This document shows positions 441-41,093 of a stretch of DNA of 41,093 bases, piece by piece. The notes under the pieces were generated by a model. The model did not search any database and was not told the DNA's origin. It worked only from the letters and a program-made list of their open reading frames with translations. Source of the DNA: a bacterium (GTDB lineage: Bacteria; SZUA-182; DTGQ01). Every line of letters starts with the position of its first letter. Position 1 is the stretch's first letter. The stretch spans positions 1-41,093 of the forward strand of contig JBFMGO010000042.1 in assembly GCA_040752695.1 (NCBI GenBank), written 5' to 3'. The translations under genes were made by a program, and so were the position numbers.

Positions 441-640
441 CTCGCTTAAACAATTAGGTAAATTTAAATTGCAGTTCCTTGCCTGTCACTGGGAAAAATG
501 GTTGCTGCTGTCCTCTTTCATCATCTGAACGCAAAAAGGAGGGCTCATACAAAAAAACATATAATACAAAAAAATCTATAAATCATCAATACCGCTGGCG
601 AAACAACAGGATATATCACAAACAACAAAAGGAGAATGAA

Positions 641-1114
641 ATGGCACGAAAAAGGTTAAATAGATGGTTCACGATAGGGGCTGTGATATTTTTCCTCGCT
701 GTCGGCAGTAGACCTGTCTATGCTGAGGATAACAACCCTTCTCCGTTGTTTGAAGAATCGTTGGAGGCAACACTTAAAGAATTTGCCCTCGGGACCAGGA
801 GAATTCAAAGCAGATCAGAAATCCGCAGAGACACTTCAAAGATGTATTCGGGATCCAGAACGAATGCCTTTTTTAGACCGACCTTTATGAGTTCAACTAC
901 CTGCTATAGATCCGTTACCTGCAGAGGCGCACGATGTGTCTGCATGCCTCGACTGCCTACGCTGGTTGGAAACACCTGTAGTGTTACTTGTGGGGTTCGC
1001 TCGACCTGCGCCGGTATTATTTGCCGGTATATATCACCTTGTGCCAAGGCAGATAGCCCTTCCCGTTATCTGGTGAACAATAATAAAGAACCATATTCTT
1101 TAAATGTCTTTTAA
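641..1114 (+). CDS. Exported small protein (157 aa) with Thr-Cys-repeat, Cys-rich C-terminal region; precursor-like
   Basis: AAGGAG RBS at 629-634, ATG at 641; Sec-type signal MARKRLNRWFTIGAVIFFLAVGSRPVYA; 9 Cys in ~50 aa, five as TC dyads; the ORF track's 479 start is a TTG followed by low-complexity AT-rich sequence. Confidence 0.8.
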   Translation: MARKRLNRWFTIGAVIFFLAVGSRPVYAEDNNPSPLFEESLEATLKEFALGTRRIQSRSEIRRDTSKMYSGSRTNAFFRPTFMSSTTCYRSVTCRGARCVCMPRLPTLVGNTCSVTCGVRSTCAGIICRYISPCAKADSPSRYLVNNNKEPYSLNVF

Positions 1115-1130
1115 TAAACATAATATGGCT

Positions 1131-1161
1131 GAATCTCCCCCTTAATAAAAGGGGGAGATTC
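1131..1161 (+). terminator. Perfect 13-bp stem hairpin after the Cys-rich gene (mRNA stabiliser, leaky terminator or REP-like)
   Basis: gaatctccccctt-aataa-aagggggagattc; no U-tract follows. Confidence 0.65.
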
Positions 1162-1266
1162 GTCGGGTTTCCAGCTTCTTGACCCTATCCCCATTCAGGA
1201 ATCAGGAATAATGTTGAAGTGGGGTATATTCCCTGATAGAAATCCTTTCCTTCCAATAAAAAAGAT

Positions 1267-3975
1267 ATGTCACTGATAGATCGATTTCAACCACGGGCTC
1301 TTGGAGCCGCGAAAATATCAAAATCTTCTTCGAGCAGGGTATCTTTGAGCAGGGTAATTATATTCCTTGCCTTATTGAATATCAATCTTGGCAACCTGTT
1401 TTATTTTGGAGATTCGGCGAATAGAATCACCTCCTTCTTTTTGGGTATCCTTCTGCTTACCTGCTTCCTGAAGGAAAACGGTCTGGGAACAAAAAGAACG
1501 GCCTTTCGAGGTTACCTCCCGGCTGTGGTAAGTTGTACCTGTTTGCTGCTCTGCTTCATTTCTCAAGAGGCAGGACTCGTCGGGTTAGTAATTGCTCTGG
1601 GATGTATGCTCGTTTTAGGTTTGAAAGATACCGACAGGGACCAAATTTCCGTTTTTCTCACTACCACCGGGTTCATTGTCCTCTTTGATTATGGTTATGG
1701 GCATGACACCCGGGTCTGGTACGGAGTAAAGAAGATAAACCACCTGCTCATGACCTTCATCGGAATATTCACGAGAGAAAAGATGGCATTCGGGCCTCAT
1801 CCTTCCGGATTTTTTATCCTGTTAACCATAGTTGTTTACTCCTTCGCCTTTATCCTCTGCAACAGAGGAAAAAAAAGAAAGGCTTTTAGCATTATTGCCG
1901 GTTTTTGCGTTTTTTTATTTTTCGTTTTTATGAGTCAGGCACTTTACTTATTTCTCCAACAGAGGATTTTCTCGCGCATCCAGGTAAATATTTATCAAAC
2001 CCAATTAAAACTCACTCCTTTCGGAACGCACTGGGTTGCGTTTATTCTCTTTTTAATTCCGCTTTATCTTGAGTATAAAGGCTTTTTCCCCTTACTGTCA
2101 GCTCATCAGTTCTTCATCGAAGAAACTGAAAATCAAAGCCTCGGCCTCGGCCAAGACCAATACCAAGATCAAGATCAAAGACAAAACTACAGCCACAGCC
2201 AAAACTACAGTAAAAACCAAAACCAGGATCAAAACCAAGACCAGGATCAAAGCCGGGATCAAAACCAAAATAGAAAAGAAAATAAATCCTGCCTTGCACC
2301 GAGCTTTTTGCCAGCTAAACGACAAGGAGGGATTCAAAATTATCTCATCTGGTCCATGGCAATTGCTCTTTGTTTTATTTTGCTGATTACCTGGCAAAGA
2401 AGAAAAAGTATTCCACTTTCATCCTCTCATTGTGACAGAGCCATTCTCATCTATGATAATCTGGATTGGTCTAAACCTGTCTTCGGATTTTATGGGGAAA
2501 CCAGCGGTGGAATGTTTGGCAATCTCCCTGATTTTTTAAGCTCCTTAGGCTATAGGGTTCAGGTTGCCAGCAGGATCACTGAAGAGAAGCTTCGATCGGT
2601 CGGCTGTCTGGTTTTGATAAATCTTGCCGAAAAACTCGATAAACCGGCCCAAGCTGCTATCCGCCGCTATGTAGAGAAAGGCGGAAGTCTTCTGATCATG
2701 GGAGATCATACCGGTTTTGGCTTTATCCGTGAACCATTTAACGAGCTTCTCGAACCCGTGCACATATCTTTCCAGTTTGACAGTGCCTGTTCCCTGGTTC
2801 CTTCCTGGCAAAATTGTATGGAAATAAGGCATCATCCGATCACCGCTCACGCCTGCACTGAGAATGATGTGCAAATCTGGACCGGCGCCTCATTAAAAGT
2901 AGGGTATCCTGCCGTTCCCATTATAGTCGGAAAGAGAGCTTTCTCGGATGCCGGCAATCTGGATAACAAGGAGAACGGCTACCTGGGAGATCTTCTCTAC
3001 CAGCAGTCTGAGTGGCTGGGGGATATTGTCCTGGCGGCAGAGGGAAGGTTAGGGAAAGGGAAAGTTCTCGTGTTCGGTGATACTTCCAGCGTACAAAATG
3101 GAGCCCTGCCCTACAGCCACCAATTCGTGCAAGATATCTTTCATTGGCTAATGGAAGAAAAAAAAGGTACAGTTCAGCAGCGATTCAGGTTTCTTTCCTT
3201 CTTTCTGTGGGCCTTATTGTTGCTTTCGGTGGCTGCCGTATGGGCAAGCGCTCCGTTTACAGGTGTACTTTGCCTGGTTTTAGGCTTGTATTTTGCCCAA
3301 TTGCCGGGCTATTACCCTCTCCTGCCGGGTCCCGCGCCTGGCTGTGGGGAGATCCGAAGCGTGGCCGGCATGGATAATTCTGTGGCCTGCATTGATAATT
3401 CTCATGGCGAGTCTTTCGATACTACCGGCTGGCATAAAAATTCTATCGATGGTTTACTCTATAATTTGATACGAAACGATTACATGCCTTTTATTATCAA
3501 AACCTTAGATTCTCCATCTATAAATACCGCCGGTATGTTGGTTTTTGTCAATCCTACCAAGACATTCTCGAAAGAAGAAAAAGAAAGACTGCATCATTTT
3601 CTTAAACAGGGAGGCATTATTCTTTGGACTACTGACTGGCCAATGCGCGAAGCCAGCCTGTCCTTTTTAGCTGACTTCGGATTGGCCTTCGTCAACCTTC
3701 CCTTGGGGCCGGTCAAAGGAAAATTGCGGAATTATGAAGTTCAATTTAGTAATGCCTGGCCAATCTCGATTGAGGATTGGGCAGCAGGGGAAACCACAAC
3801 GTTTTTTCAAAAAAGCCGCTACCCCCTGGTGGTTTTCCGAAAATATGGCAGGGGTGGTATTCTTTTAATTTCAGATGCTTGCTTTTTACTCAATCACAAC
3901 CTGGAACATATCGATTTTTTTCAAGAAGGCAATATTTTATTTTTCCGGGACATACTAAATGAGGTTAAGTCTTAA
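1267..3975 (+). CDS. Polytopic membrane protein with two GATase-like/DUF4350 (GIFT-like) soluble domains; paralog of 3985..6600
   Basis: Many hydrophobic helices in the N-terminal ~380 aa; motifs YVEKGGSLLIMGDHT, GKGKVLVFGDTS, IDNSHGE, FLKQGG, GRGGILLISD; Q/N/D low-complexity insert. Confidence 0.75.
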   Translation: MSLIDRFQPRALGAAKISKSSSSRVSLSRVIIFLALLNINLGNLFYFGDSANRITSFFLGILLLTCFLKENGLGTKRTAFRGYLPAVVSCTCLLLCFISQEAGLVGLVIALGCMLVLGLKDTDRDQISVFLTTTGFIVLFDYGYGHDTRVWYGVKKINHLLMTFIGIFTREKMAFGPHPSGFFILLTIVVYSFAFILCNRGKKRKAFSIIAGFCVFLFFVFMSQALYLFLQQRIFSRIQVNIYQTQLKLTPFGTHWVAFILFLIPLYLEYKGFFPLLSAHQFFIEETENQSLGLGQDQYQDQDQRQNYSHSQNYSKNQNQDQNQDQDQSRDQNQNRKENKSCLAPSFLPAKRQGGIQNYLIWSMAIALCFILLITWQRRKSIPLSSSHCDRAILIYDNLDWSKPVFGFYGETSGGMFGNLPDFLSSLGYRVQVASRITEEKLRSVGCLVLINLAEKLDKPAQAAIRRYVEKGGSLLIMGDHTGFGFIREPFNELLEPVHISFQFDSACSLVPSWQNCMEIRHHPITAHACTENDVQIWTGASLKVGYPAVPIIVGKRAFSDAGNLDNKENGYLGDLLYQQSEWLGDIVLAAEGRLGKGKVLVFGDTSSVQNGALPYSHQFVQDIFHWLMEEKKGTVQQRFRFLSFFLWALLLLSVAAVWASAPFTGVLCLVLGLYFAQLPGYYPLLPGPAPGCGEIRSVAGMDNSVACIDNSHGESFDTTGWHKNSIDGLLYNLIRNDYMPFIIKTLDSPSINTAGMLVFVNPTKTFSKEEKERLHHFLKQGGIILWTTDWPMREASLSFLADFGLAFVNLPLGPVKGKLRNYEVQFSNAWPISIEDWAAGETTTFFQKSRYPLVVFRKYGRGGILLISDACFLLNHNLEHIDFFQEGNILFFRDILNEVKS

Positions 3976-3984
3976 AAAAATAAA

Positions 3985-6600
3985 ATGAATCTGCTCTGGT
4001 TTGTGTTATGGCTTCTTTCATCGAGTATGGTATTCTTATCCCCGGTTTATGTATCACCTTCAATTCCCTGGGGCTCCAGGATAATTGTGATCGCCGTTAT
4101 CCTCTGTTTTTGGGGGCTGCGTACCATAAAGCCCGAAAAAGCAAGTCCGGTTTTTACGCTTCATGAGCGCCTTTTTTATCGAAGCCTCTTTATCGTTTCA
4201 CTTGGCCTGATCATTATCTTACCCCGGTTTTATATCATTGCTCCGATTTTATGGTCCTCAGGGATACTCCTTCAGCCCGTACGAAAAAGATTCCCGGTAT
4301 TTTCTTCCCTGGCTGATGCTTTGTGGCTGTGTAGCCTGGTTTTGCTCTTTCAGGTGGCTGCCATGCCCCTGGTTTACTTTTTCGGAGCCAGATATCATCA
4401 GATTTCATTCCTGCATCCTTTGGTCTGTTCCCTTCTCAGGATCGCGGGTTTGCGAATAACCTCAAGTAACGGTTCTCTCTTCGTCCAGACCATAAGTACT
4501 ACTTCGAAAATTACCATTACACTCGAGCGATTGGGATTTTTCCCTTTTCTTCTCTATCTATTCGGTGGTCTGGCGCTTCTTTTTTTAACCAGCCACGGAT
4601 GGAAACGGATTACCCGGTTTATTCTCATCCTCACCGGCTATTGTACCTTCCGTTTTCTTCTCCTCCTTCTCATAAGTATTGAATGGAATAATCCGGTCGT
4701 ATTTTGGTCTTCCATAATCACCTCCCTGAGCTTTCTTCCCCTCCCCTTCCTGTTGACCGAACTTCTCCCTTTTTCCCCTTACTCTTCACCGGGAGATTTT
4801 TCAAATGAAAATATCCCGGAAAACAAAATTATCCACGCAAATGAAATCATCCACGCAAACAAAATCATTCACCTTGAATTTATCCCGAAGAGAGAAACTT
4901 TTCAATTCGGCGGCGCACTGTTTATCTGTATTGTCTCTATCATTTTCGCTCTTGGTTTCCATGACCCGGGGATGAGAAAACAGGGAAGGATCCTGATCGA
5001 CGAACAGCACAGCAACTGGGAATGGACGGATATCGAGTTTAACACTCAAATTTTTGGGAAAAAAACAGATTACAATTTTTACTGCATGAGTAAATACTTA
5101 AGCTATTTTTATTCAGTAAAAAGAAACCACCGACCTCTTACTCCCCATATCCTGGAAGATACTGATGTCCTGATTCTGAAAACACCCACGCAAGAGTATA
5201 CTGACGAGGAAAGAGAAGCTATCGTGAATTTTGTAGGCCGCGGCGGAGGGCTTTTCCTTATCGGCGATCATACCAATGTATTCGGTATGAGCACCTATCT
5301 CAATAAAATAGCCAGGAGATTCAACTTATGCTTTCGGTATGATGTCACCTATGACCTGCCTACGTATAACCTGTCCCTCTATCGAAAACCCGATCTCTTT
5401 GCCCATCCGGCAGTAGAACGGGTTCCGGTCTTTTTATTCGGTTCATCATGTACGCTTTCGATACCCCTGAAAGCAGATTCTGTTATCACAGGGTATGGCC
5501 TTCGGAATCATTATCTGGACTATTCACAAAAAAATTTTTTCCCCATTCCGGAAGAGGATTCTGATTATGAATTCGGGCTCTTTATCCAAAGTGCTGCTGT
5601 AACCTACAAGAAAGGGAGAGTCTTGGCCTTTACCGACAGCACATGCTTCTCCAATTTTTTCGTGTTTATTCCAGGCAAACCCGAATTGCTCCTCGGATCG
5701 GTTGAGTGGTTAAACCGGAAAAATAAGTTCGGTTTTATCAAGCTCATTTTTTTCTTCCTGGGTGTTGGGGGGCTGATCTATCTGCTCATTTCCTGGCAGA
5801 CGAAAAAGGAATACTTCCTGCCGGGGACGAAAAAAGAATATTTCCTGGGAATAGCGCTGTTATTCGGGCTTGCTGCGATCTTGACAGGAATTGTAGCCGT
5901 GCGTTTTATCAATCAAAAGAATTATGAACCTCCCGCAGCCCAAAAGGATTTTTTTCGCCTGGCCGTGGATTCTGAATACTCTTCGCTTTTCCTTCCCGTT
6001 ACCAGACTGGCTGAAACATCTGATAAAAGCTTTCTCACCTTTTTTGTCTGGTCACAGCGTCTGGGATTCGTACCCAATTTGGCACCAACTCTGAATTCAG
6101 CAATGACAACGGGAAATGCAGTTATCTTGATTGATCCTGCAAGAGATTTTCCCCCTGACCAAACAGCAGCCTTAAAAAATTACCTTCTCAAAGGGGGGGC
6201 GGTACTGCTCCTGGATACACCACAGAATCAACAGTCAAAGGCCAATCAAATCCTGCGGGAATTCGATATGACCATTGATTACCACAATTCCGTTAAGGGA
6301 GCGTTGTTTGACAATAATGCTCAACCTGTTGGAGAAATAGATCAGGCTCATAAAATTGAAGGAGGGGATTCTCTGCTGGCAGACCAGGGAGGCAATTCCG
6401 TTCTCTCCGTTAAAAAATTCGGAGCCGGACTTATCACGGTATTTACTGCATCTCATCTCTTTCGCGATGAGTCTATAGGATATACTAATTCAGTTCCCGA
6501 TGAATATCAACATTGGTTAAGCAAAATGGAATTCTGGCTGCTGAGCAGTCTGGCCAAAAAAACCTTCATCCCCTTTTCAGCTTACTCTTCCATGAAATAA
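3985..6600 (+). CDS. Polytopic membrane protein with exosortase-like N-terminal segment and two GATase-like/DUF4350 domains
   Basis: Starts 9 bp after the previous stop; ILIDEQHSNWE, FVGRGGGLFLIGDHTN, KGRVLAFTDST, YLLKGG; ITITLERLG...YCTFRF spacing resembles the exosortase C-x-G...N-x-x-R region. Confidence 0.72.
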   Translation: MNLLWFVLWLLSSSMVFLSPVYVSPSIPWGSRIIVIAVILCFWGLRTIKPEKASPVFTLHERLFYRSLFIVSLGLIIILPRFYIIAPILWSSGILLQPVRKRFPVFSSLADALWLCSLVLLFQVAAMPLVYFFGARYHQISFLHPLVCSLLRIAGLRITSSNGSLFVQTISTTSKITITLERLGFFPFLLYLFGGLALLFLTSHGWKRITRFILILTGYCTFRFLLLLLISIEWNNPVVFWSSIITSLSFLPLPFLLTELLPFSPYSSPGDFSNENIPENKIIHANEIIHANKIIHLEFIPKRETFQFGGALFICIVSIIFALGFHDPGMRKQGRILIDEQHSNWEWTDIEFNTQIFGKKTDYNFYCMSKYLSYFYSVKRNHRPLTPHILEDTDVLILKTPTQEYTDEEREAIVNFVGRGGGLFLIGDHTNVFGMSTYLNKIARRFNLCFRYDVTYDLPTYNLSLYRKPDLFAHPAVERVPVFLFGSSCTLSIPLKADSVITGYGLRNHYLDYSQKNFFPIPEEDSDYEFGLFIQSAAVTYKKGRVLAFTDSTCFSNFFVFIPGKPELLLGSVEWLNRKNKFGFIKLIFFFLGVGGLIYLLISWQTKKEYFLPGTKKEYFLGIALLFGLAAILTGIVAVRFINQKNYEPPAAQKDFFRLAVDSEYSSLFLPVTRLAETSDKSFLTFFVWSQRLGFVPNLAPTLNSAMTTGNAVILIDPARDFPPDQTAALKNYLLKGGAVLLLDTPQNQQSKANQILREFDMTIDYHNSVKGALFDNNAQPVGEIDQAHKIEGGDSLLADQGGNSVLSVKKFGAGLITVFTASHLFRDESIGYTNSVPDEYQHWLSKMEFWLLSSLAKKTFIPFSAYSSMK

Positions 6601-7040
6601 AGATAGCGAGTTTTCAATAACTTTGCCTCCAAACACAAGGCCAATCAGCGAAGATATTTTACCCTATGCTCTCGTGTTCTTAAGCAACTGATTGGCTCAT
6701 ACCATCCTTCATCTGAAACAAGGCAAAAGCCATCCGGTGAAACAAGGCCAAAAGTCATCCGGCTGCAATATTTACCATGGCTCGTACTGAGGCAATTGAA
6801 GATACCTTCCACCCGGCACCATTCCCAAGATATGCGACAGGCAGGAACCTTTCTCTGTATTAAAATTCTCCATATTATTTTCGATAAAAGATAAACCTTA
6901 TTTAAAATAAATAAAAAGTATCGTATCTATACGCCATATTTCCCAAAGTAATAATAATTGCCCGGAGGGGAAATGATCTTTTACTTTACCGATTTTGGTA
7001 GGGACCTATTACGATAAAAACGATAATAGTATGAACAAAA

Positions 7041-7165
7041 GGACGCTCATGTCTATCGAGGGTGTAAAATCGAGAAGGGTTTAAGGGGCTGGTATTTGAT
7101 CCCTTTATTTCTATTCATCGATAACCACTCTTTTGGCAAAACACGGAATCTGGACATGAGCGTTT
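7041..7165. mobile_element. Possible ~125-bp MITE/IS remnant bounded by inverted repeats
   Basis: acgctcatgtc (7043-7053) is the exact reverse complement of gacatgagcgt (7153-7163); no ORF inside and no clear target duplication. Confidence 0.35.
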
Positions 7166-7380
7166 GCCCCATATGCTTTTGGGCTTCTTTGGAATAAAGA
7201 CGATGATGTCAACATATCTCTGACAGCTTTTTACGTTCATAATGTTGCACATCCATCGTATGACTTTATACTTATTTTATTGAATTATAGTGTATTGTAA
7301 ATGAAATTTTTCGCATTTCCAATCAATCTCTAAAATAGTTGGTATTTTAATATAACAAATATAAATAGTTATACTGGCCT

Positions 7381-7432
7381 ATACATACACATATATATAT
7401 GTATATGTGTATGTATGTATGTATGTATGTAT
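7381..7432. repeat. (TA)n/(TATG)n microsatellite upstream of the giant fibre gene
   Basis: atacatacacatatatatatgtatatgtgtatgtatgtatgtatgtatgtat read directly. Confidence 0.9.
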
Positions 7433-7586
7433 CTTATCTATATTTCTATTCATTATGGTCTCGAGTGCAATGCAGCTAGATATAGGTCGGTCAAGTCCGT
7501 AATTAAAATACCAGGAATTATGAGCAGATCAATCAAGAAACCATACCAAACACACGATGATCTCACCTCAACTAAAGGAGATGGAA

Positions 7587-28949: not shown

Positions 28950-29594
28950 CGAATCTGTGGTCTTTTAAAAGTGATATTGTCTGACACATATGAGCGAATA
29001 TTTCCCTATTCTTAACAGGTTATGATAAAACTGCAAAAATATAGTTGTATTTTCATACTAAACTTATCATTACTTATGTACAAGTATTCAAATTATGTAC
29101 AAGTACTCAGAAAAATACCTCATCATAAAATACTCAGAAAAATATCTCCTCATATTGATTCATTTACTTACGAATATAGTTGCTGGGTGGCATAAAACTA
29201 TCCTCCTTACTAAAAATGATTTATATTATAATGCGTTAAAACCTTCAGACCTCCCAAATGTTGATTCAACGATTCAGAATGTTGGAAGCCTTGCAGGAAT
29301 GGAGAAAAATATATTTTTTCAAGTCATTAATCCTTAGTCCAGGTTTTGTTTTCTCCCAATATTTCCTATACTTCCATTTCAAATATCTCTATCTTATTCT
29401 CTGCTTATAAGTAGTAGACGAAATTTAGTTCAAGTTTTGGGAAAAATAAATTTAAAATATAATATAAATGGATATCCACCAAAGGACATTTATCTATAAG
29501 TGTGAAATCTACTGGCAAGAGACTTTCAAATGGGAGCTTACTCTGATGCTTTACTCCACCTGGTTATCACATCAACGGCCGAAAGGAGTTGTTC

Positions 29595-29748
29595 ATGAGA
29601 GTTCCTCGTAACAATCAAAATAACGAGCTACCTTTGTCATCGCCTGACAAAAAATCTCTTCATGTGAGGGGGGGAGATTTCCCTTGGGAAGAGGATCAAT
29701 TTGGCAGAGATTGGCCATAAGAGAGTAGAGCTTGATTTTGAAGGGGGA
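29595..29748 (+). pseudogene. 5' fragment of an IS1380-family transposase, frameshifted at a G7 run
   Basis: GAAAGGAG RBS then ATG; removing one G gives ...HVRGEISLGKRINLAEIGHKRVELDFEGG, resembling the IS1380 N-terminal V-x-x-D-F-x-G-G motif; breaks off before the expected SD-x-G. Confidence 0.5.
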
Positions 29749-29834
29749 TCGCGACACGAGGTCGCATAAGTAGCTGTTATGACTGAGAGATCAGGACATA
29801 ACCTAATGTTCTGCCATTAGTACCCTACCGGGAC

Positions 29835-30951
29835 GTGCGGTTGGGGTAACCCGATGGTGCGAAGCTCTCGGAACAATGTAGCCTCAACTGTAGCTGAGTT
29901 GGCAGCCGAACCGTGAGGAGAAGCTGCGACTGCCAGCCCTCTGGTGGTCGGGAACTAGGGTTGAGTGGTATGGTCAACATAAGTGAATCGCCGTAAGCGT
30001 CGTAACGAAAGGCAAGCCAAAAGGGCTGACAGGCCTGGACCAAAAGGTAAGTGGCCAGGTACGGAGGTTTCTTCCTCCTCCGTCGCAGATGTTGAGCCAC
30101 CGGCGTACAGGCGGGACCTAACCATTCGTGGTACTTATGCGGAACGTGGTAACCCCGTATCTCTCCTCTGAATGAGGAAGGCAGTACCGCAAGGACGGCT
30201 GATAGAGATGCGGGAGAACGAGGACTGAAGAAGCGAAAGCCGTCCGGTAATAGGAATGGATACAGGCTGAAAACATTGCCTGGCTCGAAAGAGAGCTGAC
30301 GTCAGTCTGGTGCTTTATTGCGAGAGAGTTTGAAGAACCTTTGAATGAGGGAACGCAAATGGTGATTGTACAAACAATCGGTGCCCCCGATGACAGAGCA
30401 GCAGCGGAATGGAAATGGATCATATGGGATAAAGTTCACCGCTCTGTGAAAAGGCTGCAAATGCGTATCGCAAAGGCAATCAGGGAAGGAAAACGCAGTA
30501 AAGCGAAAGCCTTACAGTGGCTTCTTACCCACTCGTATTGTGCCAGATTACTGGCAGTCAAGCGAGTCACAGAAAACGAAGGAAGGAAAACCCCTGGTGT
30601 AGACGGAGAAATCTGGAACACACCACAGAAGAAAGTGCAGGCCATACAATCACTCCAACGACATGGATACCGCCCTAAGCCGTTAAGACGCATTTATATT
30701 CCCAAGAATAATGGCAAACTGCGCCCTTTAAGTATTCCAGTGTTAAACCTGAAGTCATGATTGGACAGCTCAACTCGAAAATTCGCGGATGGGCTAACTA
30801 TCACAGGTACATTGGCGCGGCCAAGACCTTCAGACATGTGGACATGCACATCTTTAAAGGTATTTGGAGTTGGGCGAAGAAAAGACATCCAAACAAAGGG
30901 GCGGACTGGATCAGAAGAAAATACTTCTCTAAGGGGGCTGGTAATAGCAAC
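29835..30951 (+). mobile_element. Group II intron remnant: 5' ribozyme domains present, ORF internally deleted, domains V-VI missing
   Basis: GTGCG 5' end at 29835; ~520 nt structured leader (gaacgtggtaaccccg..., gaagaagcgaaagcc...); RT ORF follows; no GAGCCG...GAAA...CGGTTC domain V downstream. Confidence 0.85.
30359..30951 (+). pseudogene. ltrA: Group II intron RT/maturase pseudogene: RVT_N plus start of RT joined out of frame to domain X
   Basis: W..I.W.KV..SVKRLQMRIAKA...NEGRKTPGVDG...RRIYIPKNNGKLRPLSIP, then at ~30740 jumps to LNSKIRGWANYH...WAKKRHPNK...KYF; no YADD. Confidence 0.9.
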
Positions 30952-31165
30952 CGAAAATTGACAGTATGAAGCTCCAACTTCATACAAGAGGGAGCGGTAT
31001 GTCTAAAAATGACTTAATCTTGGTAAAAACGCTTTGAAAACAAAGGGAAATTGGCAAACAGAAGAGAAAAACTCCTCCTCAAAAGGGATCTTCCTCATTC
31101 TTGGCAAGATTCCTGCTAAAAAAGGGGAGTTTTTGTTGACCATGGGAACTTATGAATAATTCGGG
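30952..31165 (+). mobile_element. Probable IS1380-family right end
   Basis: Ends acttatgaataattcggg (reverse complement CCCGAATTATTCATAAG, resembling IS1380-family IRs as I recall them); abuts a 5'-truncated gene. Confidence 0.5.
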
Positions 31166-31384
31166 TCAGGTTACGAGAATAGACGTAATGTTGAAAAAGT
31201 TGCAGGCACCCCGAAAGAGGTGGAGAAAGCCTTTGGTTTGGATGCTGGAACTTTGGCTAATCTGAGGACTGAATGCAAGGGGCCGAAATATAGGAAAGTG
31301 GGCCGCCGGATAATTTATATGTTCAAGGATATCCAAGAGTGGCTTGACCAGCATATAGTCCTTACGAAAGATTCCCTCTTGTAA
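31166..31384 (+). pseudogene. 5'-truncated excisionase-like helix-turn-helix (HTH_17/MerR-like) gene, absent from the ORF track
   Basis: SGYENRRNVEKVAGTPKEVEKAFGLDAGTLANLRTECKGPKYRKVGRRIIYMFKDIQEWLDQHIVLTKDSLL*; no N-terminal start, and an in-frame stop lies in the putative IS end. Confidence 0.7.
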
Positions 31385-31455
31385 GTCATACCAAAGGTGT
31401 TATCTGCTTCATCTCTGATAATCTAACAGGGGGCCAATAGGGGGCCAAGAAATGA

Positions 31456-31490
31456 GAAAGGGGTTAGATCGTATGACCTAACCCCTTGAT
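31456..31490 (-). terminator. Terminator downstream of the tRNA 3' end
   Basis: aaggggttag...ctaacccctt stem, followed on the minus strand by tttctcattt. Confidence 0.75.
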
Positions 31491-31495
31491 TTTCA

Positions 31496-31544
31496 TGGTG
31501 GAGCTGATGGGATTCGAACCCACGGCCTTTTGACTGCCAGTCAA
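31496..31544 (-). tRNA. 3' half of tRNA-Ala(GGC), the prophage att-site duplication; not a full tRNA
   Basis: Minus strand TTGACTGGCAGTCAAAAGGCCGTGGGTTCGAATCCCATCAGCTCCACCA: anticodon arm, T-arm, acceptor 3' strand and CCA; no D-arm or 5' acceptor strand upstream. Confidence 0.85.
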
Positions 31545-31658
31545 TTCCTCTGAATTTCCTACACTCCTCAAATTAAACTAACTAACTGAAATTACTAGAT
31601 ATTACCTTGGTAAACTTTTTCTGAATTTTACCTGCTCTGGCAGGGTTTGGAACATTTT

Positions 31659-31694
31659 TCACTCACAGATTCACTCACGGAATCACTCATAGGC
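31659..31694. repeat. Three 12-bp-phased direct repeats, candidate integrase arm-type sites
   Basis: tcactcacagat tcactcacggaa tcactcataggc, ~115 bp inside the att core. Confidence 0.6.
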
Positions 31695-31710
31695 GCTTAC
31701 CGCGTTCACA

Positions 31711-31971
31711 TTAGGTACTTTCGGCTAAACTGTTTTGTTTGATTACCTGCACTGCAATTTCTGCCAGGAGGTTCAAGACGGATTCCTTGACCTTTGGCAT
31801 CTGGGACTTTAGCTGGTGAATGAGTGCTTTTCTGCGTTCCGCATTCGTGATTATCGCAGGATCGTCCGCGATTTTCTGGGCCGCCACAATGGCAATGGCT
31901 AATGCCTCGTTTGCAAATTCTCCTACCAAACGAAAGAGTAACATAAGTACCAATTCCTTGAAGTCCATCAT
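31711..31971 (-). CDS. Small phage lysis-region protein (86 aa), possible holin or accessory lysis protein
   Basis: GGAGGT RBS then Met-Met at 31971; hydrophobic N-terminus; directly downstream of the endolysin. Confidence 0.55.
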   Translation of the reverse strand: MMDFKELVLMLLFRLVGEFANEALAIAIVAAQKIADDPAIITNAERRKALIHQLKSQMPKVKESVLNLLAEIAVQVIKQNSLAEST

Positions 31972-32017
31972 AACAGGGACACCTCCGTAAGAATGGGACA
32001 ATTGATACGATTTAGTA

Positions 32018-32614
32018 TTAGGCCCAACCATGGTTCTGGAACCATCCGGCGCGGTCGAGCACGTTTTCAGAGTAATTTTTGCCGGTGGTATAGAAGTCGA
32101 TACCTTCACCTGTCTGGATCGCTTTTAACATTCTTGATGGGCCGCAGTTGTAAGCGGCCAGTGCCATCTGAAGAAAATCCTGATCTTCGAATCCCCGCTC
32201 ATTCGCGGCACTTATGTTTTTCCTGATATAGGCAAGGCAGTCCGTTAAGACCTTGCACCCGTAGAAGATATTTTCGCGGGGATCTCGCCAATTCCCTGTT
32301 CTGGCAAAGAGGTGAGCATCCCAATCGATCTGCATCAGGCCCCGTCCGAACCCCATCCCGTCAGGAGGCAAGGGGCCTTTCCTTAATTTGGTGGGGAATT
32401 TTCTCTCCGCACAATCTCCCGTTCCCGCAGGCCCAGGTGGCTTTAATGCCAGTCCCCACTTGGATTCCCGGGAACCTAACCCGGCGATAATCGATGGTTG
32501 GAGATTGTACCGTTGGCTGGCCTCCAGGATGATGTCCCAATACAGGCCAGCTTCTGTCTTGTGCGAGAGCAGGTATGGATTATTAATGGTATATTTTGTG
32601 TCGAGTTTAACCAT
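32018..32614 (-). CDS. Endolysin, GH23 lytic transglycosylase / goose-type lysozyme-like
   Basis: IIAGLGSRES (catalytic Glu), GRGLMQID, ALAAYNCG, TTGKNYS. Confidence 0.9.
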   Translation of the reverse strand: MVKLDTKYTINNPYLLSHKTEAGLYWDIILEASQRYNLQPSIIAGLGSRESKWGLALKPPGPAGTGDCAERKFPTKLRKGPLPPDGMGFGRGLMQIDWDAHLFARTGNWRDPRENIFYGCKVLTDCLAYIRKNISAANERGFEDQDFLQMALAAYNCGPSRMLKAIQTGEGIDFYTTGKNYSENVLDRAGWFQNHGWA

Positions 32615-32634
32615 TGGGTATTTCCTATGATTTT

Positions 32635-32871
32635 TTATCTCTTGGTTTTGCGATCTTCTTTTTTGCTGAGAGCATCCTTAATGGCATCCAACTTATCATT
32701 TATCCTCTGATGGTCTTCCCGATTTTCCCTTAAGATTTCGTGTAAATCCTCTTTCAGAACATATTTTTCAGACATCGTGCGACGGGTTTTTACATTATCC
32801 AGTATCAACGCCCCGGTGATCATCCCAAAGAGAGCCAGCAGCCATTCTGTACCTTTATCAACCCATTGCAT
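32635..32871 (-). CDS. Holin-like single-TM protein with coiled-coil tail
   Basis: WLLALFGMITGALIL, then a charged heptad-like region; immediately upstream of the endolysin. Confidence 0.55.
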   Translation of the reverse strand: MQWVDKGTEWLLALFGMITGALILDNVKTRRTMSEKYVLKEDLHEILRENREDHQRINDKLDAIKDALSKKEDRKTKR

Positions 32872-32926
32872 GTGTAAGCTCCGCCCCTGTTGAACATGAA
32901 GATGAACATATATGCAGATATGTATA

Positions 32927-34204
32927 TTAACAGGTATAGAATAATATATATATTTTCACAAGTTTATCGAGTGCAAGAGTAGTGAGATCCAAAGCGACTC
33001 CGGATGTGTTTGTTAATGAAATAGCGACTCCGTTATTTACTACGGCTGAGGCTATATAATAAAGTCCCGTATTATTAAAGGTAATACTGCACATTAAGAC
33101 CCGTGCTACATCGACATCTGTGTTGACCGTTAAAACTGTCCCATCTGCATTTAATGACATGACAACATTACTGCCATTTTTGCCTATGGTATACTGGCCA
33201 AAACCTGCATTGGTGAGATTATCCGCCCAAACATCGATGTCCGATCCCCCATTGCCTCGGATATTGACCGCTTCTGCACGCATAACGCAAAAGGCAGTTT
33301 GATCGCCCAGCACCAGGTGGTAAGGAATCCCATGTATCCATGTAAAGCCATCCTCACAGATAGCGTTAATTCCACCTGCTGTAGCCCGGATTCCATCACA
33401 GGCCCGATTGATTTCCGCTGCTGTGGCCGCCAAGCCCAGATTGACAAGAGCTCCTTCTGGGGTGCTCGATCCTGTGCCGCCTCCGGAAACCGGCAGAACC
33501 GCCGCTGTGTGGAGAAGGTTCGATACGCCATCCCTGATGCTGATCAGGTTGGTGGCAAATCCCGATGCATCGGTGAGAGGGGTGGCGATTCCCCCAGGGC
33601 CTGTTTGTATAATCTGGCCATCAACGATGTTGCATTTTTTCCCTGCACGAACGGTGAATGCGGTGGTTACCGTGCCAGATCCGGTATTTTTCACGATGAG
33701 GTTGTCGTGGCTGTTATTGTCACCGTTAAAGGCGATGGCCTCAGCAATCGTGCCAGTATGGGAGAGTTCAAGGAGAAAGTCCCCTTCGGTCTCGACATCA
33801 TTGCCAAACGAGATCACGGTGGCCAAAGCGGTCGAGCAGGTAATCTTTACCCCTTTTTTCATCTTCAATTTGATGCCTGACGGGATAGTTAAGATAGAGG
33901 TAATCGCCTGGTCTGTGTTAATGAGGACACGATCCCCTGCTGCCGGAGAATCAGCCAGGTAGGCTGCCAGGGTGGCATAATCGCCCTCGTGATCCGGGGT
34001 GTCGATGATGGTGTTATACTCCATCGTCACCCGGCCAAAGTACTGGAGCCATTTCGAGACCAGGTTCCAAAACCAGTTGAAGTGCTGAAAGGCAGGCTTT
34101 TCTCCGGATAACCAGCCCGTGGCCTGCTTCGATGCACTCGGTGCGATGATCTTTGACGGGTCGTTATCCGGAATCCAGTCCGGGGTTTCTGCTGGACGTG
34201 ACAT
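32927..34204 (-). CDS. Phage tail fibre/spike-like protein
   Basis: AAGGAGG RBS; GWLSGEKPAFQHFNWFWN fibre N-terminal motif; LPVSGGGTGSSTPEGALVNLGL fibre motif. Confidence 0.7.
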   Translation of the reverse strand: MSRPAETPDWIPDNDPSKIIAPSASKQATGWLSGEKPAFQHFNWFWNLVSKWLQYFGRVTMEYNTIIDTPDHEGDYATLAAYLADSPAAGDRVLINTDQAITSILTIPSGIKLKMKKGVKITCSTALATVISFGNDVETEGDFLLELSHTGTIAEAIAFNGDNNSHDNLIVKNTGSGTVTTAFTVRAGKKCNIVDGQIIQTGPGGIATPLTDASGFATNLISIRDGVSNLLHTAAVLPVSGGGTGSSTPEGALVNLGLAATAAEINRACDGIRATAGGINAICEDGFTWIHGIPYHLVLGDQTAFCVMRAEAVNIRGNGGSDIDVWADNLTNAGFGQYTIGKNGSNVVMSLNADGTVLTVNTDVDVARVLMCSITFNNTGLYYIASAVVNNGVAISLTNTSGVALDLTTLALDKLVKIYILFYTC

Positions 34205-34233
34205 AAGTTAATCGCCTCCTTATCTTCAGTTTA

Positions 34234-34289
34234 AAGGTACCCAGTTATTTCAAGGCTGCCCTGTTAGTTCAAGGCTACCCAGTTAGTAT
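34234..34289. repeat. Three ~19-bp tandem repeats upstream of the fibre gene
   Basis: aaggtacccagttatttc aaggctgccctgttagttc aaggctacccagttagtat. Confidence 0.75.
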
Positions 34290-34459
34290 TTCCGGTTCCC
34301 GTCGATTTATACCACTGGGTATTACTCGTATCCAGCAGCTCTTTGGACAATCTCAAAGTTGCTGAGAGAAACTTCTCATTTTATTGAGAGAAAAATTATA
34401 GCATGAAAAATGAGAAGTTAAAGATATTGATTATTATGGTGGTAAAATATGCGGCAAAT

Positions 34460-35497
34460 TTAAGTAATATTTATGGAGTCACATAAGTAGCGAGCAGATA
34501 TTGAAGCACTTGAGCTGTTAGGTTGAAAATATAAATTGCAGGTCCTGGTGCCACAATATACAGTTGAATTCCACTTTCCACCAAAATGAGCGCTAATAAA
34601 AGAAAAGTATCCCTGGCAATAAACATGCCCAGCATAATAGTTTACCCACTCGAATGGGGCAGAAGCATCTGCCGAACCGGTAGTTGCGTTCTGGGTATAA
34701 ACAGCCCCAGCGTTCTCTTGATGAGAGTGGTTAAAGCTAGCAGCGCGAAAATTATAACTTATTCCAAATTGTTCGAATACACCGGTACAATCTTCAACCC
34801 CAATCGTAGATTTTATACGAGCAAGATTAGTAGCTACATGCCCGCCAGTCGTTACAGGGTTAGCAGATCCTTGTATATTCACCCCTTCAGGAGATCCTGA
34901 TGCGAAGGTGGAGAATTGTTCATAAGTACACAATTGCTTCCCAACATTAGCACCTTTCCTAACAAAATCAAGCTGATTAACTGTGTTTAAAACAGTGCCA
35001 TGATATGCGCTAGAGACGCCATTTGAGCCATTATCTGATGGTAAATATATGTCAACCCATTTGTTAATACCAGAGCAATACACCATCCCCCTGGGGTCAG
35101 GGCACGAGGGCCGAAAATCCAAGTCCCAAATTGAGTATTGTAAGATTGATCCATCAGGGTTATTATGGAACCCGCCTATCTTCCTGCTATTAGACGAATC
35201 ATAGCCTTGTGGGTATGTGGAATTTATGCTTATTTTAAAGACCGGAGTAACACCGCTTGCAGGTATGCAGGCATAGACGAAATAGTCTTTGCCGTTTTCC
35301 TCAGCGCCTGTGTCGAGATCAGACCATCCGAGTTGAATATCGGTATCGACAACTATAATAGAACTGCCAACGCGAAGATATTGCTCGGCACATACCTTTA
35401 TGTTAGCAACACCAATATAATCTAACACCCTGCTAGTACCAAACTTTTCACGATTTAAGGCCATCAATGTATCGACCTGTAATATGCGATTAGACAT
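34460..35497 (-). CDS. Major tropism determinant (Mtd)-like receptor-binding protein, copy 2
   Basis: DLDTG...GKDYFVYAC...NSRKIGGFH, SIWDL.FRP..PDPRGMV, WVDIYL, GVEDCTG, C-terminal FGGKWN..YCGTR.CN...PNSSSASISARYLCD (C-type lectin fold end). Confidence 0.8.
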   Translation of the reverse strand: MSNRILQVDTLMALNREKFGTSRVLDYIGVANIKVCAEQYLRVGSSIIVVDTDIQLGWSDLDTGAEENGKDYFVYACIPASGVTPVFKISINSTYPQGYDSSNSRKIGGFHNNPDGSILQYSIWDLDFRPSCPDPRGMVYCSGINKWVDIYLPSDNGSNGVSSAYHGTVLNTVNQLDFVRKGANVGKQLCTYEQFSTFASGSPEGVNIQGSANPVTTGGHVATNLARIKSTIGVEDCTGVFEQFGISYNFRAASFNHSHQENAGAVYTQNATTGSADASAPFEWVNYYAGHVYCQGYFSFISAHFGGKWNSTVYCGTRTCNLYFQPNSSSASISARYLCDSINIT

Positions 35498-35536
35498 GAT
35501 TAATCCCCTTATATAATACGTTACCTCAGGCAGTGC

Positions 35537-36583
35537 CTACCTCTGAATTGCCGCACACACGAAACGGGCGGAGATTCCGGCATCTGATTGATACGGAGCG
35601 TAAAATAGATTCTGGCATAATGGTCCACAGTTCACACCAACGTCCCATTTACCTCCAAATACAGGCTCAATCAACCCTTTTGCCCCCTGTTGATATATCT
35701 GCCCTTTTCCGCTTGGGAGGGCATAATAACTAAAAGCAGGAGTTAAAGTCGGGGTATTGGTATTGGCATTCTGAGTATACTCAGGATCCTGATTCTCGGT
35801 GTGTGTATGGTCAAATCCTTGTGCCGCATGATTCATGCCCATTCCCCATTGGTATATAACTCCGACGCAATCCTCTACCCCAATGGTGCTAACGATGCGA
35901 GACGCATCCGTGGCTGTATGGCCGCCTGTAGCGACAGGGTCTGCCGATCCTTCTATATTCACCTCGATTGGTGATCCGTCAGCGTACACCTGGAATTCAT
36001 CATACCTGGTGAGCCTCTTTCCTACTTTTGCCCCTCTATCGACGAAATCATAATGGGAAAGAGTGTCGAGGATCGTACCTCCAAATACGCTTTGTACTCC
36101 CCCTGCTCCGTCGTCTGAGGGTAGGTAAATATCCACCCACCTGTTAATACCGAAACAATACACCATGCCCCTGGGATCAGGGCAGGAGGGGTGAAAATCG
36201 AGATCCCAGATGGAGTATTGCAGGATGTCTCCATCAGGATTATTGTGGAACCCTCCGATTTTCCTGCTATTAGTGGAATTATACCCCTGAGGGTATGTGG
36301 AATTGAGGCTGATTTTAAATACAGGGGTATCACCACTTGCAGGAAGACATGCGTAAACAAAATAATCTTTGCCGATTTCCTCTTCTCCTGTATCAAGGTC
36401 TGACCAGCCAAGCTGAATATCGGTAGCAATAGCCACGATTGAATCAGCAATCCTGATAAATTGTTCGGCACATACCTTTATGTTGGCAGCATCGATAAAT
36501 TCCAGTATTCTGGTAGTACCGACTTTTTTGTGGTTAATTCCAACCAAAATCGATACTCCGGCACGACACAATGTAATGCTCAT
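35537..36583 (-). CDS. Major tropism determinant (Mtd)-like receptor-binding protein, copy 1
   Basis: Same motifs as 34460..35497; C-terminus FGGKWD.GVNCG..CQN...APYQSDAGISARFVC. Confidence 0.8.
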   Translation of the reverse strand: MSITLCRAGVSILVGINHKKVGTTRILEFIDAANIKVCAEQFIRIADSIVAIATDIQLGWSDLDTGEEEIGKDYFVYACLPASGDTPVFKISLNSTYPQGYNSTNSRKIGGFHNNPDGDILQYSIWDLDFHPSCPDPRGMVYCFGINRWVDIYLPSDDGAGGVQSVFGGTILDTLSHYDFVDRGAKVGKRLTRYDEFQVYADGSPIEVNIEGSADPVATGGHTATDASRIVSTIGVEDCVGVIYQWGMGMNHAAQGFDHTHTENQDPEYTQNANTNTPTLTPAFSYYALPSGKGQIYQQGAKGLIEPVFGGKWDVGVNCGPLCQNLFYAPYQSDAGISARFVCAAIQR

Positions 36584-36607
36584 TGCCTCACCTGCTTTCG
36601 CCCTTAA

Positions 36608-37195
36608 TCAAACATTCAATCTGGAGTCAATAATGCCTTGTACTTGAGATATCAAGGCATTTAAAATTTCTCCGGCAGTATCCTGAGCGATATCACGATT
36701 GGGATTAACCAAAGCTGAAACCAGGGATTCAGTCCCTGAACCGATCAGGCCAAAAAAGATTTCATCTGGCATCCAATCGGGATGATTATCGAGATCGAGG
36801 GATAAGTTGACGGATAAGTTATGCAGGGAATCTTCTATCTCCTCGATCTCATCGTTTTGAACCATCTCAGACATTGCAACGAGCTGCTTGAGAAATGGTT
36901 GAATGGCATCTACCGTCTCAATAAGACTATTGACTTTTGTAACATCCAAACCAATGAGGAAAATGGATCCCCCTGGATTATCAACCTCGGTCCAATCGAT
37001 TGGCTGGACAGGTTGACCGTCAACCAGTGTCTCAGGATTCTCAGGATCACATCCTTCAGGCCAGACGGGCTCACGTCTTTTAGCAGTATTTAAAAGAGCC
37101 TGTAAGGCAGATTTTGTCATCTCCGGATCAAGGTCAGCTCTTATAACATTAATGATGTCCTGCTTTGAGTTAAAATATTTTGGATATCCCTTCAT
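36608..37195 (-). CDS. Phage tail-region hypothetical protein
   Basis: GGAG RBS; MKGYPKYFNSKQD start; co-oriented between fibre-like and Mtd-like genes. Confidence 0.7.
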   Translation of the reverse strand: MKGYPKYFNSKQDIINVIRADLDPEMTKSALQALLNTAKRREPVWPEGCDPENPETLVDGQPVQPIDWTEVDNPGGSIFLIGLDVTKVNSLIETVDAIQPFLKQLVAMSEMVQNDEIEEIEDSLHNLSVNLSLDLDNHPDWMPDEIFFGLIGSGTESLVSALVNPNRDIAQDTAGEILNALISQVQGIIDSRLNV

Positions 37196-37258
37196 GCTCC
37201 ACTCCTTCCTGATGTAAATAACCTATTTAAGTCTACTCAATTCTTTTGTCTGGTCTCG

Positions 37259-38191: not shown

Positions 38192-38225
38192 AATTATCCT
38201 CTCTTTACCCTCTCTTTGCCGTTTA

Positions 38226-40778: not shown

Positions 40779-40978
40779 AGCCTTCTCACCTCCAAAATCT
40801 TTGATGCAAGCCGGGATTTAGGGAAAATCATTACACCTCCTCTGACATCACACGAAAGGAAGTTCCCCGATCCTACATAAATGGCTGTATTGATATCGTC
40901 CTGGTTGCGAATTAAACAAAAGTCGGCTGGACGCAGGTAGCAGGGGTTTATTTTTTCTCCAAGTGATCGTGTGCTTCC
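40754..40978 (-). pseudogene. C-terminal half of an NlpC/P60-like tail-assembly gene, cut at 40980
   Basis: Manual translation GSTRSLGEKINPCYLRPADFCLIRNQDDINTAIYVGSGNFLSCDVRGGVMIFPKSRLASKILEVRRLCPRLCLI*; overlaps the start of the J-like gene; no upstream start codon in frame. Confidence 0.6.
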
Positions 40979-40979
40979 G

Positions 40980-41093
40980 GTAAGCGTGCATGAAAATTAG
41001 ATAAGAAAGCATTATCATAGGTTATCCAAGAGAATAAGATAAGGGAGGATAATCTATGAATCAAGAAAGCCTACCAGTAGTTAAGCCAACCAT
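40980..41093 (+). mobile_element. Probable IS66-family left end with the start of its first ORF (41056, MNQESLPVVKPT...)
   Basis: Begins GTAAGCGT, the typical IS66 terminus; AAGGGAGG RBS and ATG on the strand opposite to the phage genes; coincides with truncation of the tail gene. Confidence 0.6.

Follow-up and report, generated by a model that had tools for sequence, protein, structure and literature searches.

A membrane-anchored extracytoplasmic GIFT-type GATase1-like domain is found in GldG of the GldAFG gliding motility system (ABC_transp_aux, PF09822), and a GIFT-type domain that is membrane-tethered and non-cytoplasmic is likewise part of OST48/Wbp1, in a multi-subunit membrane complex. 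In site-1 protease (S1P) the GIFT subdomain contacts a small Cys-rich partner, SPRING, on the non-cytoplasmic side of the membrane (PMC11231238). The exosortase/PEP-CTERM and archaeosortase/PGF-CTERM systems, which are widely spread in bacteria and archaea, combine a polytopic protein with an exported family bearing a short motif near a hydrophobic segment, and systems for ribosomally synthesized and post-translationally modified peptides (RiPPs), such as class I lanthipeptides, typically place a small gene first, often followed by a hairpin, whose product has a conserved N-terminal motif and a hypervariable Thr/Cys-rich part. Features of each of these are found in a three-gene locus, pep-A-B, on contig JBFMGO010000042.1 (assembly GCA_040752695.1; GTDB lineage Bacteria; SZUA-182; DTGQ01), the whole 41,093-nt stretch of which is referred to here as the window. 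The plus strand encodes a 157-aa exported Cys-repeat protein (pep, 641..1114), a 902-aa membrane protein (A, 1267..3975) and, starting 9 nt after A, an 871-aa membrane protein (B, 3985..6600).

The reading favored here, to which we give roughly even chances, is that A and B act as a heterodimer on the outer side of the membrane, where they dock or process Cys-repeat surface proteins selected by a short N-terminal segment termed the handle. In this scheme pep, A, and B would form one self-contained module, in which A and B would be made in a fixed ratio and would probably assemble as a heterodimer in the cytoplasmic membrane, each supplying a polytopic N-terminal domain (N-domain) and two GIFT-type domains to a common platform. 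Pep and its counterparts would be exported by Sec with the handle lying just behind the signal peptide. The platform would probably recognize this handle, since it is the sole part of the exported proteins (the cargo) that is conserved across phyla, and the captured Cys-repeat protein would be retained, positioned, or processed at the outer face of the membrane. A/B would in that case be a surface-display or assembly device and not a modification enzyme of the cytoplasmic type. The handle, the Cys repeats, and the N-domains of A and B all lie outside the models of Pfam and NCBIfam, and a full-text literature search returned no paper on the module; texts that the search did not cover could hold one. 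No known system has its defining features.

A-B pairs are linked to handle-bearing Cys-repeat proteins

At least 262 relatives of B were detected among the candidates scored in a set of 5.8 billion proteins, and B was located at 279 places in species-representative genomes; relatives of A in the representative set numbered 1667 (E ≤ 1e-3). The source names attached to these proteins are limited to "hypothetical," "Gldg family," and "DUF4350 domain-containing." Open reading frames (ORFs) were called and clustered in the best 80 loci (the window and 79 others, after removal of two duplicates). A precedes B in 61 of the 80, comprising 58 intact pairs and three in which A is split, while B alone is present in 19, many of them at contig ends, and the order B-then-A was found in none. 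The tight coupling of the two genes claimed in the first-pass annotation of this DNA is therefore conserved, with a median gap of -4 nt between the A stop and the B start, and this overlap together with the fixed order suggests that the two proteins are co-translated in a set proportion and form a heterodimer.

The only recurrent neighbors of A/B in the 80 clustered loci are several families of Cys-rich proteins that cannot be aligned with one another and yet start alike, with a signal peptide followed after 6–18 residues by S-P-[LA]-[FY] and an amphipathic helix. This handle of about 20 residues is represented by PSPLFEESLEATLKEF in the window, ETPLFKESLENS in Desulfatirhabdium, ASPLFDASLRKTLREF in a Fusobacterium metagenome-assembled genome (MAG), and DSPLFKTRTKQS in Thermoplasmatota, and in the handle alignment (A4) positions S9, P10, and F12 reach a conservation of 90% or more across 45 sequences. 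In pep, the "SPLF handle" extends from S34 to G51 (SPLFEESLEATLKEFALG; 740..793, plus strand) and scores 23.7 bits with a 28-position profile. The handle and Cys-repeat parts of seven representatives matched nothing in Pfam or NCBIfam. Record titles of the homologous A-B loci that have a signal-peptide Cys-repeat neighbor name at least 10 bacterial phyla as well as Thermoplasmatota, so that the proposed test of whether such an ORF accompanies the pair across phyla has now been run with a positive outcome.

The profile was applied to all six-frame ORFs, with scores from 15 bits upward taken as matches. Thirty-four A-B pairs are flanked by 1.5 kb or more on each side; a handle ORF lies close by in 27 of them, two have a Cys-repeat ORF in which the handle is cut or divergent, and five have neither. 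A match was obtained in 43 of the 80 loci, 10 of which lay outside the seed alignment, and in 32 of these 43 the closest handle ORF shares the strand and is no more than 400 bp away (18 upstream, 13 downstream, and one overlapping). Six more loci, namely five short-flank pairs and one unpaired B, contain Cys-repeat ORFs that are N-terminally truncated or masked. At the level of whole genomes the handle is highly specific. Only three of the 111,936 six-frame ORFs in the window genome (6.05 Mb) reach the threshold, and two of them directly precede its only two A-B pairs; in five other genomes (∼13.9 Mb) all six matches fall inside pair loci; and of five genomes that contain a pair but no adjacent handle gene, three have exactly one handle ORF elsewhere, in each case a Cys-repeat protein. 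Across these 11 whole genomes the profile matched only such Cys-repeat proteins. A sample of 20 genomes from the phylum of the window gave a handle in five of the 13 with a B-like gene and in none of the seven without one; in G001, G002 (twice), and G004 it is located 3–6 kb from B on a common contig.

The window genome provides a second complete copy of pep-A-B on contig C55 (L095; pep at 6902-7552 on the minus strand, with A′/B′ downstream), whose A′ and B′ proteins are ∼57% identical to A and B. Pep itself has one homolog detectable by sequence, P0001 (38% identity, E 4e-18), which occupies the equivalent position in another assembly (L005). This syntenic homolog and the C55 copy argue that the pep-A-B arrangement is more than a chance association. 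A Pfam scan of the 134 nearest flanking proteins (14 ORFs of at least 715 aa and ∼45 further neighbors lay outside it) revealed a mixture of housekeeping genes and no further conserved partner, which is the basis for regarding the module as self-contained.

The cargo proteins, as judged from handle-bearing homologs, range from ∼100 to 1404 aa. Their commonest Cys spacings are six (238 cases) and four (213 cases), with spacings of 13 and 15 in a Desulfobacterales class and of 14–17 in a Chloroflexota class. The Thr-Cys dyad first remarked on in pep generalizes to the cargo, since Thr precedes 613 Cys residues and the next most frequent residue, Glu, only 83, but it does not extend to every lineage; the Desulfobacterales and Chloroflexota classes lack Thr-Cys, and the feature common to all cargo is Cys. 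Some cargo proteins carry C-terminal choline-binding repeats or an FlgD-Ig domain, and SLH-like and dockerin-like tails were recognized by eye, so that from their sequences the cargo look like surface proteins more than peptides. When the L012 cargo (L012:9994-12252) was compared with PDB sequences, the sole matches were to FlgD-Ig, at its C-terminus, and to a LIM protein, of low complexity. The repeat of the beetle antifreeze protein TmAFP, TCTxSxNCxxAx, forms a disulfide-laddered beta-helix (PMC8038014), and many cargo repeats resemble it in having Thr-Cys and a Cys every six residues, an analogy for which no homology is claimed; unlike TmAFP, the cargo also has spacings of 4, 13, and 15, and the hosts appear from their taxon labels to be mostly anaerobes, in which disulfides are doubtful. 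A T-[ST]-W-G-x-[LV]-K tail is conserved at the C-terminus of one cargo class (L024, L033, L078, and L099). In Thermoplasmatota (L028:7198-8742, L040:6474-7955, L035, and L041), several handle proteins of ∼105–160 aa with few Cys flank the pair, and a protein of ∼500 aa with a BPL_N match is also encoded nearby. The BPL_N family is likewise GATase-like.

A broader and more tentative proposal, which we consider less likely than not, is that the module represents a hitherto unrecognized protein-sorting or surface-assembly system of Bacteria and Archaea in which an N-terminal, post-signal handle is read outside the membrane by a dedicated GIFT heterodimer and the clients are rods or fibers built from regularly spaced Cys (Thr-Cys ladders). 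These rods or fibers could then be surface structures that bind thiols or metals or are stapled by disulfides or thioethers, in hosts that appear to be mostly anaerobic. Such a system would be a counterpart to sortase, exosortase, archaeosortase, and the sorting of C-terminal domain proteins by type IX secretion (T9SS-CTD), but its signal would sit at the other terminus. Should the handle prove to serve in sorting or docking, it would define a new route of surface placement in diderm and monoderm bacteria and in Thermoplasmatota archaea, and would give a role to a large group of Cys-repeat proteins that reach 1404 aa.

Several points weigh against a docking or processing role for A/B that is dedicated to handle proteins. 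Five well-flanked pairs (L020, L039, L050, L056, and L071) have no adjacent cargo gene, and two of their genomes, G029 and G030, are handle-free throughout by the profile. L050 comes from a Clostridiales isolate, the one record of the set that does not bear the label MAG. In the sample from the window's own phylum no handle was matched in eight of the 13 genomes with a B-like gene; most of these eight carry just distant B-like paralogs (220–300 bits). The loci are also not independent, as L028 and L029 share an assembly and the members of L043/L046 and of L018/L019 are almost the same; for the seed sequences, moreover, a match to the handle profile is built in. The third match in the window genome, a handle paralog on C11 (L096:5412-6137, 241 aa), has no A/B pair nearby and is surrounded by an exopolysaccharide cluster containing methyltransferases, GT4, GT2, Wzz+AAA_31, and Poly_export (Wza-type) genes. 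What the analysis shows is the gene linkage, the handle specificity, the folds, and the predicted topology, whereas physical binding of the handle by A/B, a complex between A and B, and any chemistry are steps that we infer. Prediction of a complex between B (871 aa) and a 42-aa handle scored 0.01, 0.62, and 0.01 in three runs made without control runs and speaks neither for nor against binding. Furthermore, the invariant polar set of B (H429 to T553, see below) could constitute a catalytic site, which would favor a modifying enzyme over a passive dock.

Fold and predicted topology of A and B

A is composed of a polytopic N-domain, a Q/D/N-rich linker, a GIFT-type domain, a hydrophobic segment presumed to be transmembrane (TM), and a second GIFT/DUF4350 domain. 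A full-length AlphaFold2 model of B, built from 57 sequences, has a pLDDT of 90 and a pTM of 0.90 and is divided into four parts, all given here on the plus strand. The N-domain (residues 1-324; 3985..4956; pLDDT 85 when modeled alone) consists of about nine helices and a three-strand sheet at residues 157-176. It is followed by GIFT-type domain 1 (residues 327-583; 4963..5733), an alpha/beta domain supported by structure search (VIA) and by its invariant residues, by a membrane hairpin (residues 584-646; 5734..5922) whose two helices occupy residues 584-609 and 616-646 in the model, and by GIFT/DUF4350 domain 2 (residues 647-871 plus the stop codon; 5923..6600), which is alpha/beta in the model and matches PF14258 at residues 701-833 (E 4e-14). 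Pfam families ABC_transp_aux (PF09822), IFT52_GIFT (PF23355), and DUF4350 (PF14258) are detected in both proteins. DUF4350 occurs in a different architecture in arCOG01314, with a signal peptide and one C-terminal TM segment (Makarova et al., 2015; PMC5898192), and a DUF4350 gene is only listed in a table of a Geobacter cobalt study (PMC7726332).

A and B had been described as paralogs sharing a GG-x-L-x-x-x-GDHT and an F-[GT]-D-[TS] motif, and this description stands for their soluble halves, which are 21% identical over 439 aa (E 2e-11) and contain the motifs as GGSLLIMGDHT and VFGDTS in A and as GGGLFLIGDHT and AFTDST in B. It does not extend to the N-terminal membrane domains, which fail to align and give an hhalign probability of 1.1% when compared with each other. 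The N-domain of B belongs to no Pfam family and found nothing in the PDB with Foldseek at E ≤ 1e-3; the top score in a wide VIA search, Z 8.1 for a dynamin stalk (111 residues), and the other helical-bundle rows, among them Z 7.4 for ArnT over 71 residues, are at noise level.

The best structural match of B domain 1 is the GIFT domain of IFT52 (5fmr and 5fms; Z 23.7, rmsd 2.4, 209 residues), followed by the GATase-like/GIFT subdomain of S1P (8uw8 and 9csd; Z 19.7). Residues 329-586 of B also match 6s7t_G, 6s7o_G, 8b6l_N, and 6ezn_G, which we take to be OST48/Wbp1 oligosaccharyltransferase subunits, with Z 18.1–19.3 and rmsd 3.2–3.3 over 216–221 residues at 11–16% identity. Lower scores were obtained with ThuA-like proteins (Z 14–16, best 16.3), and the GATase1-like middle domains of several glycoside hydrolases match the same fold. 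The GATase-like character attributed to these proteins is thus confirmed for the soluble domains of B, and their predicted position is external to the membrane, on the side that an exported partner would reach. The protein- or glycan-binding scaffold type represented by IFT52, OST48/Wbp1, and S1P (Z 18–24) supports a docking role, and the closest solved relatives of the GIFT domains are non-catalytic scaffold domains. IFT52 is itself a cytoplasmic scaffold of eukaryotic intraflagellar transport and belongs to an unrelated context, whereas OST48/Wbp1 differs from A/B in that its membrane part is unrelated and no STT3-like subunit is encoded among the A/B neighbors; STT3, AglB, and PglB were absent from the neighbors scanned, no genome-wide search having been made. 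The contact between S1P and SPRING is an analogy only, since SPRING has neither an SPLF handle nor repeats and the subtilase domain of S1P is missing from A/B (PMC11231238).

In the 57 B sequences, the invariant residues of GIFT domain 1 are GGG420-422, H429, T430, N431, H474, Y513, R545, D551, S552, and T553, while in the N-domain R223 is invariant and a T-x-E-[KR]-x-G motif is conserved. No Cys is found among the invariant columns or those conserved at 90% or more, and the Cys-His-Glu triad of a catalytic class I glutamine amidotransferase is accordingly not present in B. Counts of Lys plus Arg in successive loops of B alternate between 3.0, 1.0, 1.0, and 2.4 on one side and 0.2, 0.1, and 0.6 on the other (57 sequences), so that under the positive-inside rule both GIFT domains, the small sheet, and the T-x-E-[KR]-x-G motif fall on the outer side. 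The soluble domains of B are therefore predicted to face outward, and those of A are assumed, by homology with B, to do the same.

Alternative roles for the pair

Leader-guided modification outside the membrane is an unlikely alternative in which the handle would act as a RiPP-like leader and either the polar cluster of the GIFT domains or an Arg/Glu of the N-domain would act on the Thr/Cys array after export, catalyzing its cross-linking or cyclization or charging it with a metal or cofactor. The layout of the locus is RiPP-like, with a conserved N-terminal motif preceding a hypervariable Thr/Cys-rich C-terminal part, and H429/T430/N431, D551/S552/T553, H474, and R223 are strictly invariant in B. 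A strong hairpin also follows the small gene in three of four close relatives, and hairpins follow many RiPP precursor genes. Nevertheless, the RiPP-like interpretation put forward in the first-pass annotation fits poorly. A RiPP is unlikely because the cargo proteins, which start at about 100 aa, reach 1404 aa, and some of them (up to 1010–1404 aa) end in C-terminal wall-binding or other domains. Genes for LanB/C/M/KC/L and YcaO enzymes are absent from the window and from the 134 neighbors, radical SAM genes adjoin only three sampled loci and are not consistently placed, and no further conserved enzyme accompanies the pair. Pep would moreover be exported by Sec before any modification, to a compartment with no evident energy source, and the non-catalytic nature of the closest solved GIFT relatives also speaks against catalysis.

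A glycan-linked role, in which A/B would handle a lipid-linked or polymeric glycan and either O-glycosylate the Thr-rich repeats or couple the cargo to an exopolysaccharide or wall polymer, is considered quite improbable. It draws on the fold shared with OST48/Wbp1 and with the glycoside hydrolase middle domains, on the location of the orphan C11 handle protein amid GT4/GT2, methyltransferase, and Wzz-/Wza-type genes, and on the close relatives L004 and L005, in both of which a Bac_transf sugar transferase adjoins the triad, accompanied in L005 by GT2. Six unpaired B-like genes without a handle neighbor (L052, L057, L064, L070, L073, and L081) may form a separate subfamily with a glycan-related role; all of these except L064 adjoin, as judged by eye, Wzx-type flippase, GT1, or GT2-looking genes. 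On the other hand, sugar genes are sporadic among the 134 neighbors (L004, L005, and L015 only), and the N-domain of B has no match to GT-C, Wzy_C, or O-antigen ligase in the Pfam and fold searches, a missing fold match proving nothing in itself. The feature common to all cargo is, as noted above, Cys and not the Thr that O-glycosylation of the repeats would exploit.

The label exosortase-like, under which the N-domains would be divergent exosortases, cutting the cargo at the handle and fixing it by a covalent bond, is not substantiated, and we consider this reading very unlikely. In Atlas, the clusters closest to the B N-domain bear exosortase names (0.79, a lead only), hhalign sets the A segment GPHPSGFFIL and a strand-rich region of B opposite the exosortase segment DACSGLRSL, and the spacing of 42 residues between E181 and R223 of B is close to the 45 between Cys and Arg in the exosortase alignment. 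Homology is not established, though, because the defining Cys is absent and the profile scores are insignificant. With an alignment of 12 exosortases, hhalign gave probabilities of 2.5% (A2 vs. A3) and, with deeper alignments, of 1.6% (A) and 1.1% (B); alignments A2 and A5 contain no conserved Cys, whereas among the exosortases C166 and R170 are invariant and R211 is nearly so. The exosortase model PF09721 finds four genes in the window genome, among them neither A nor B and none on C42, and, with a limit as loose as E ≤ 10, fails to match a single one of 27 B N-domains. PDB fold searches with the B N-domain returned no exosortase entry against which the fold could be compared. The substrates also differ. 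Those of exosortases end in a C-terminal motif, a TM segment, and a basic tail, whereas the handle is N-terminal, behind a normal signal peptide, and the C-termini of handle cargo vary by lineage; with the signal at the N-terminus, an acyl-enzyme would presumably capture the signal-peptide side and not the cargo.

Least credible of all is that A and B are auxiliary subunits of a GldG-type ABC transporter beside which a Cys-rich gene lies by chance: the domain-level resemblance is real (PF09822 at 44 and 49 bits against a gathering score of 34.7, and one relative source-named "Gldg family protein"), but it spans only ∼60 of 288 profile positions, the GldG equivalog model TIGR03521 scores 12.5 (A) and 14.5 (B) bits against a cut-off of 389.85, ABC_tran occurs in just three loci (L004, L021, and L023) with no ABC-2 permease among the 134 neighbors and with neither an ABC ATPase nor an ABC-2 permease next to A/B in the window, GldG lacks the ∼320-aa polytopic N-domain, the two GIFT domains per chain, the A/B pairing, and the dedicated Cys-repeat partner, and the specificity of the handle disfavors chance adjacency. 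The assignment to a Gld-type ABC auxiliary family, named as a refutation in the first-pass annotation, holds only for the Pfam domain.

The pep gene, its hairpin, and the surrounding sequence

The first-pass annotation had reported pep with a Sec signal and a core of nine Cys and five Thr-Cys dyads, a hairpin lacking a U-tract, and then A and B, and each of these elements was found in its place. A Shine-Dalgarno sequence, GGAG (631..634, plus strand), was read 6 nt ahead of the pep ATG at 641. The signal peptide (residues 1-28; 641..724), with predicted cleavage between VYA and ED, shows by eye a basic n-region, a hydrophobic core, and an AxA-like site followed by a charged segment. The Cys-rich core, counted on the translation, extends from R79 to C134 (875..1042) and contains one PT[LF]VG.TC..TCG.R..C unit, which is kept in L005 and C55 and occurs three times in the C11 paralog. 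Comparison with homologs identified a conserved C-terminal tail, KEPYSLNVF (1085..1111), which corresponds to EKPLLFDLF, EKPFIFSIF, RKMFIFNMF, and EKPYTLTIF in the homologs; the five close homologs (window, L005, L004, C55, and C11) thus end in hydrophobic-x-hydrophobic-[NSDT]-hydrophobic-Phe. Such Phe-ending tails are reminiscent of the signals at the C-termini of outer-membrane proteins or of PDZ ligands.

The hairpin between pep and A (1131..1161, plus strand) has a perfect 13-bp stem (1131-1143/1149-1161) and a 5-nt loop and is followed on its 3′ side by GUCGGGUUUCC. The 161-nt region that contains it has a folding energy of -47.3 kcal/mol (z -2.84). An intrinsic terminator was considered and rejected, because the U-tract is absent and a terminator scan made no call at the hairpin. 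Hairpins of similar strength are present in the equivalent pep-A gap on C55 and L005, but not on L004. In the last of these (L001/L004, 2188-2860), which belongs to the closest relative, MAG CSMAG_150, a frameshift divides the pep homolog across a Pro-rich repeat, so that the signal and handle are read in a different frame from the Cys core and tail; this may reflect an assembly error or a pseudogene. On C55, a divergently oriented Peptidase_S8 gene with a fervidolysin-type prodomain is located upstream of the module.

Searches with pep identified no Pfam family and, in NCBIfam, only a chance-level row for LanL (11.7 bits against a cut-off of 650). A sequence search of the PDB gave nothing below E 0.65, and the best Atlas score was 0.81, to unnamed clusters and with recognition below threshold. 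Papers on eukaryotic Cys-rich repeats and attP (PMC7379824) were judged unrelated.

The window starts only 640 nt ahead of pep, and ∼210 nt upstream of the start codon is an AT-only tract of TTAA/TTTA repeats (355-430), which may be a curved-DNA or UP-like promoter region. Beyond the module, positions 7557-28826 are occupied by a run of giant exported proteins. These include a 2014-aa protein with NHL repeats and long "ITSAKIADGAVT"-type repeats, a 1325-aa protein with InlB B-repeats/fn3, a 993-aa protein combining multihaem cytochrome motifs with Golvesin_C and F5/8 type C domains, and, on the minus strand, a 1198-aa beta-helix/NosD protein. The remainder, 29000-41093, is a prophage-like block with parts of a diversity-generating retroelement, in which an RVT_N ORF (30341-30760, 139 aa), an SLT lysozyme (32018-32614), two Mtd-like genes on the minus strand (34460-35497 and 35537-36583), and a phage tail protein (38226-40778) were recognized.

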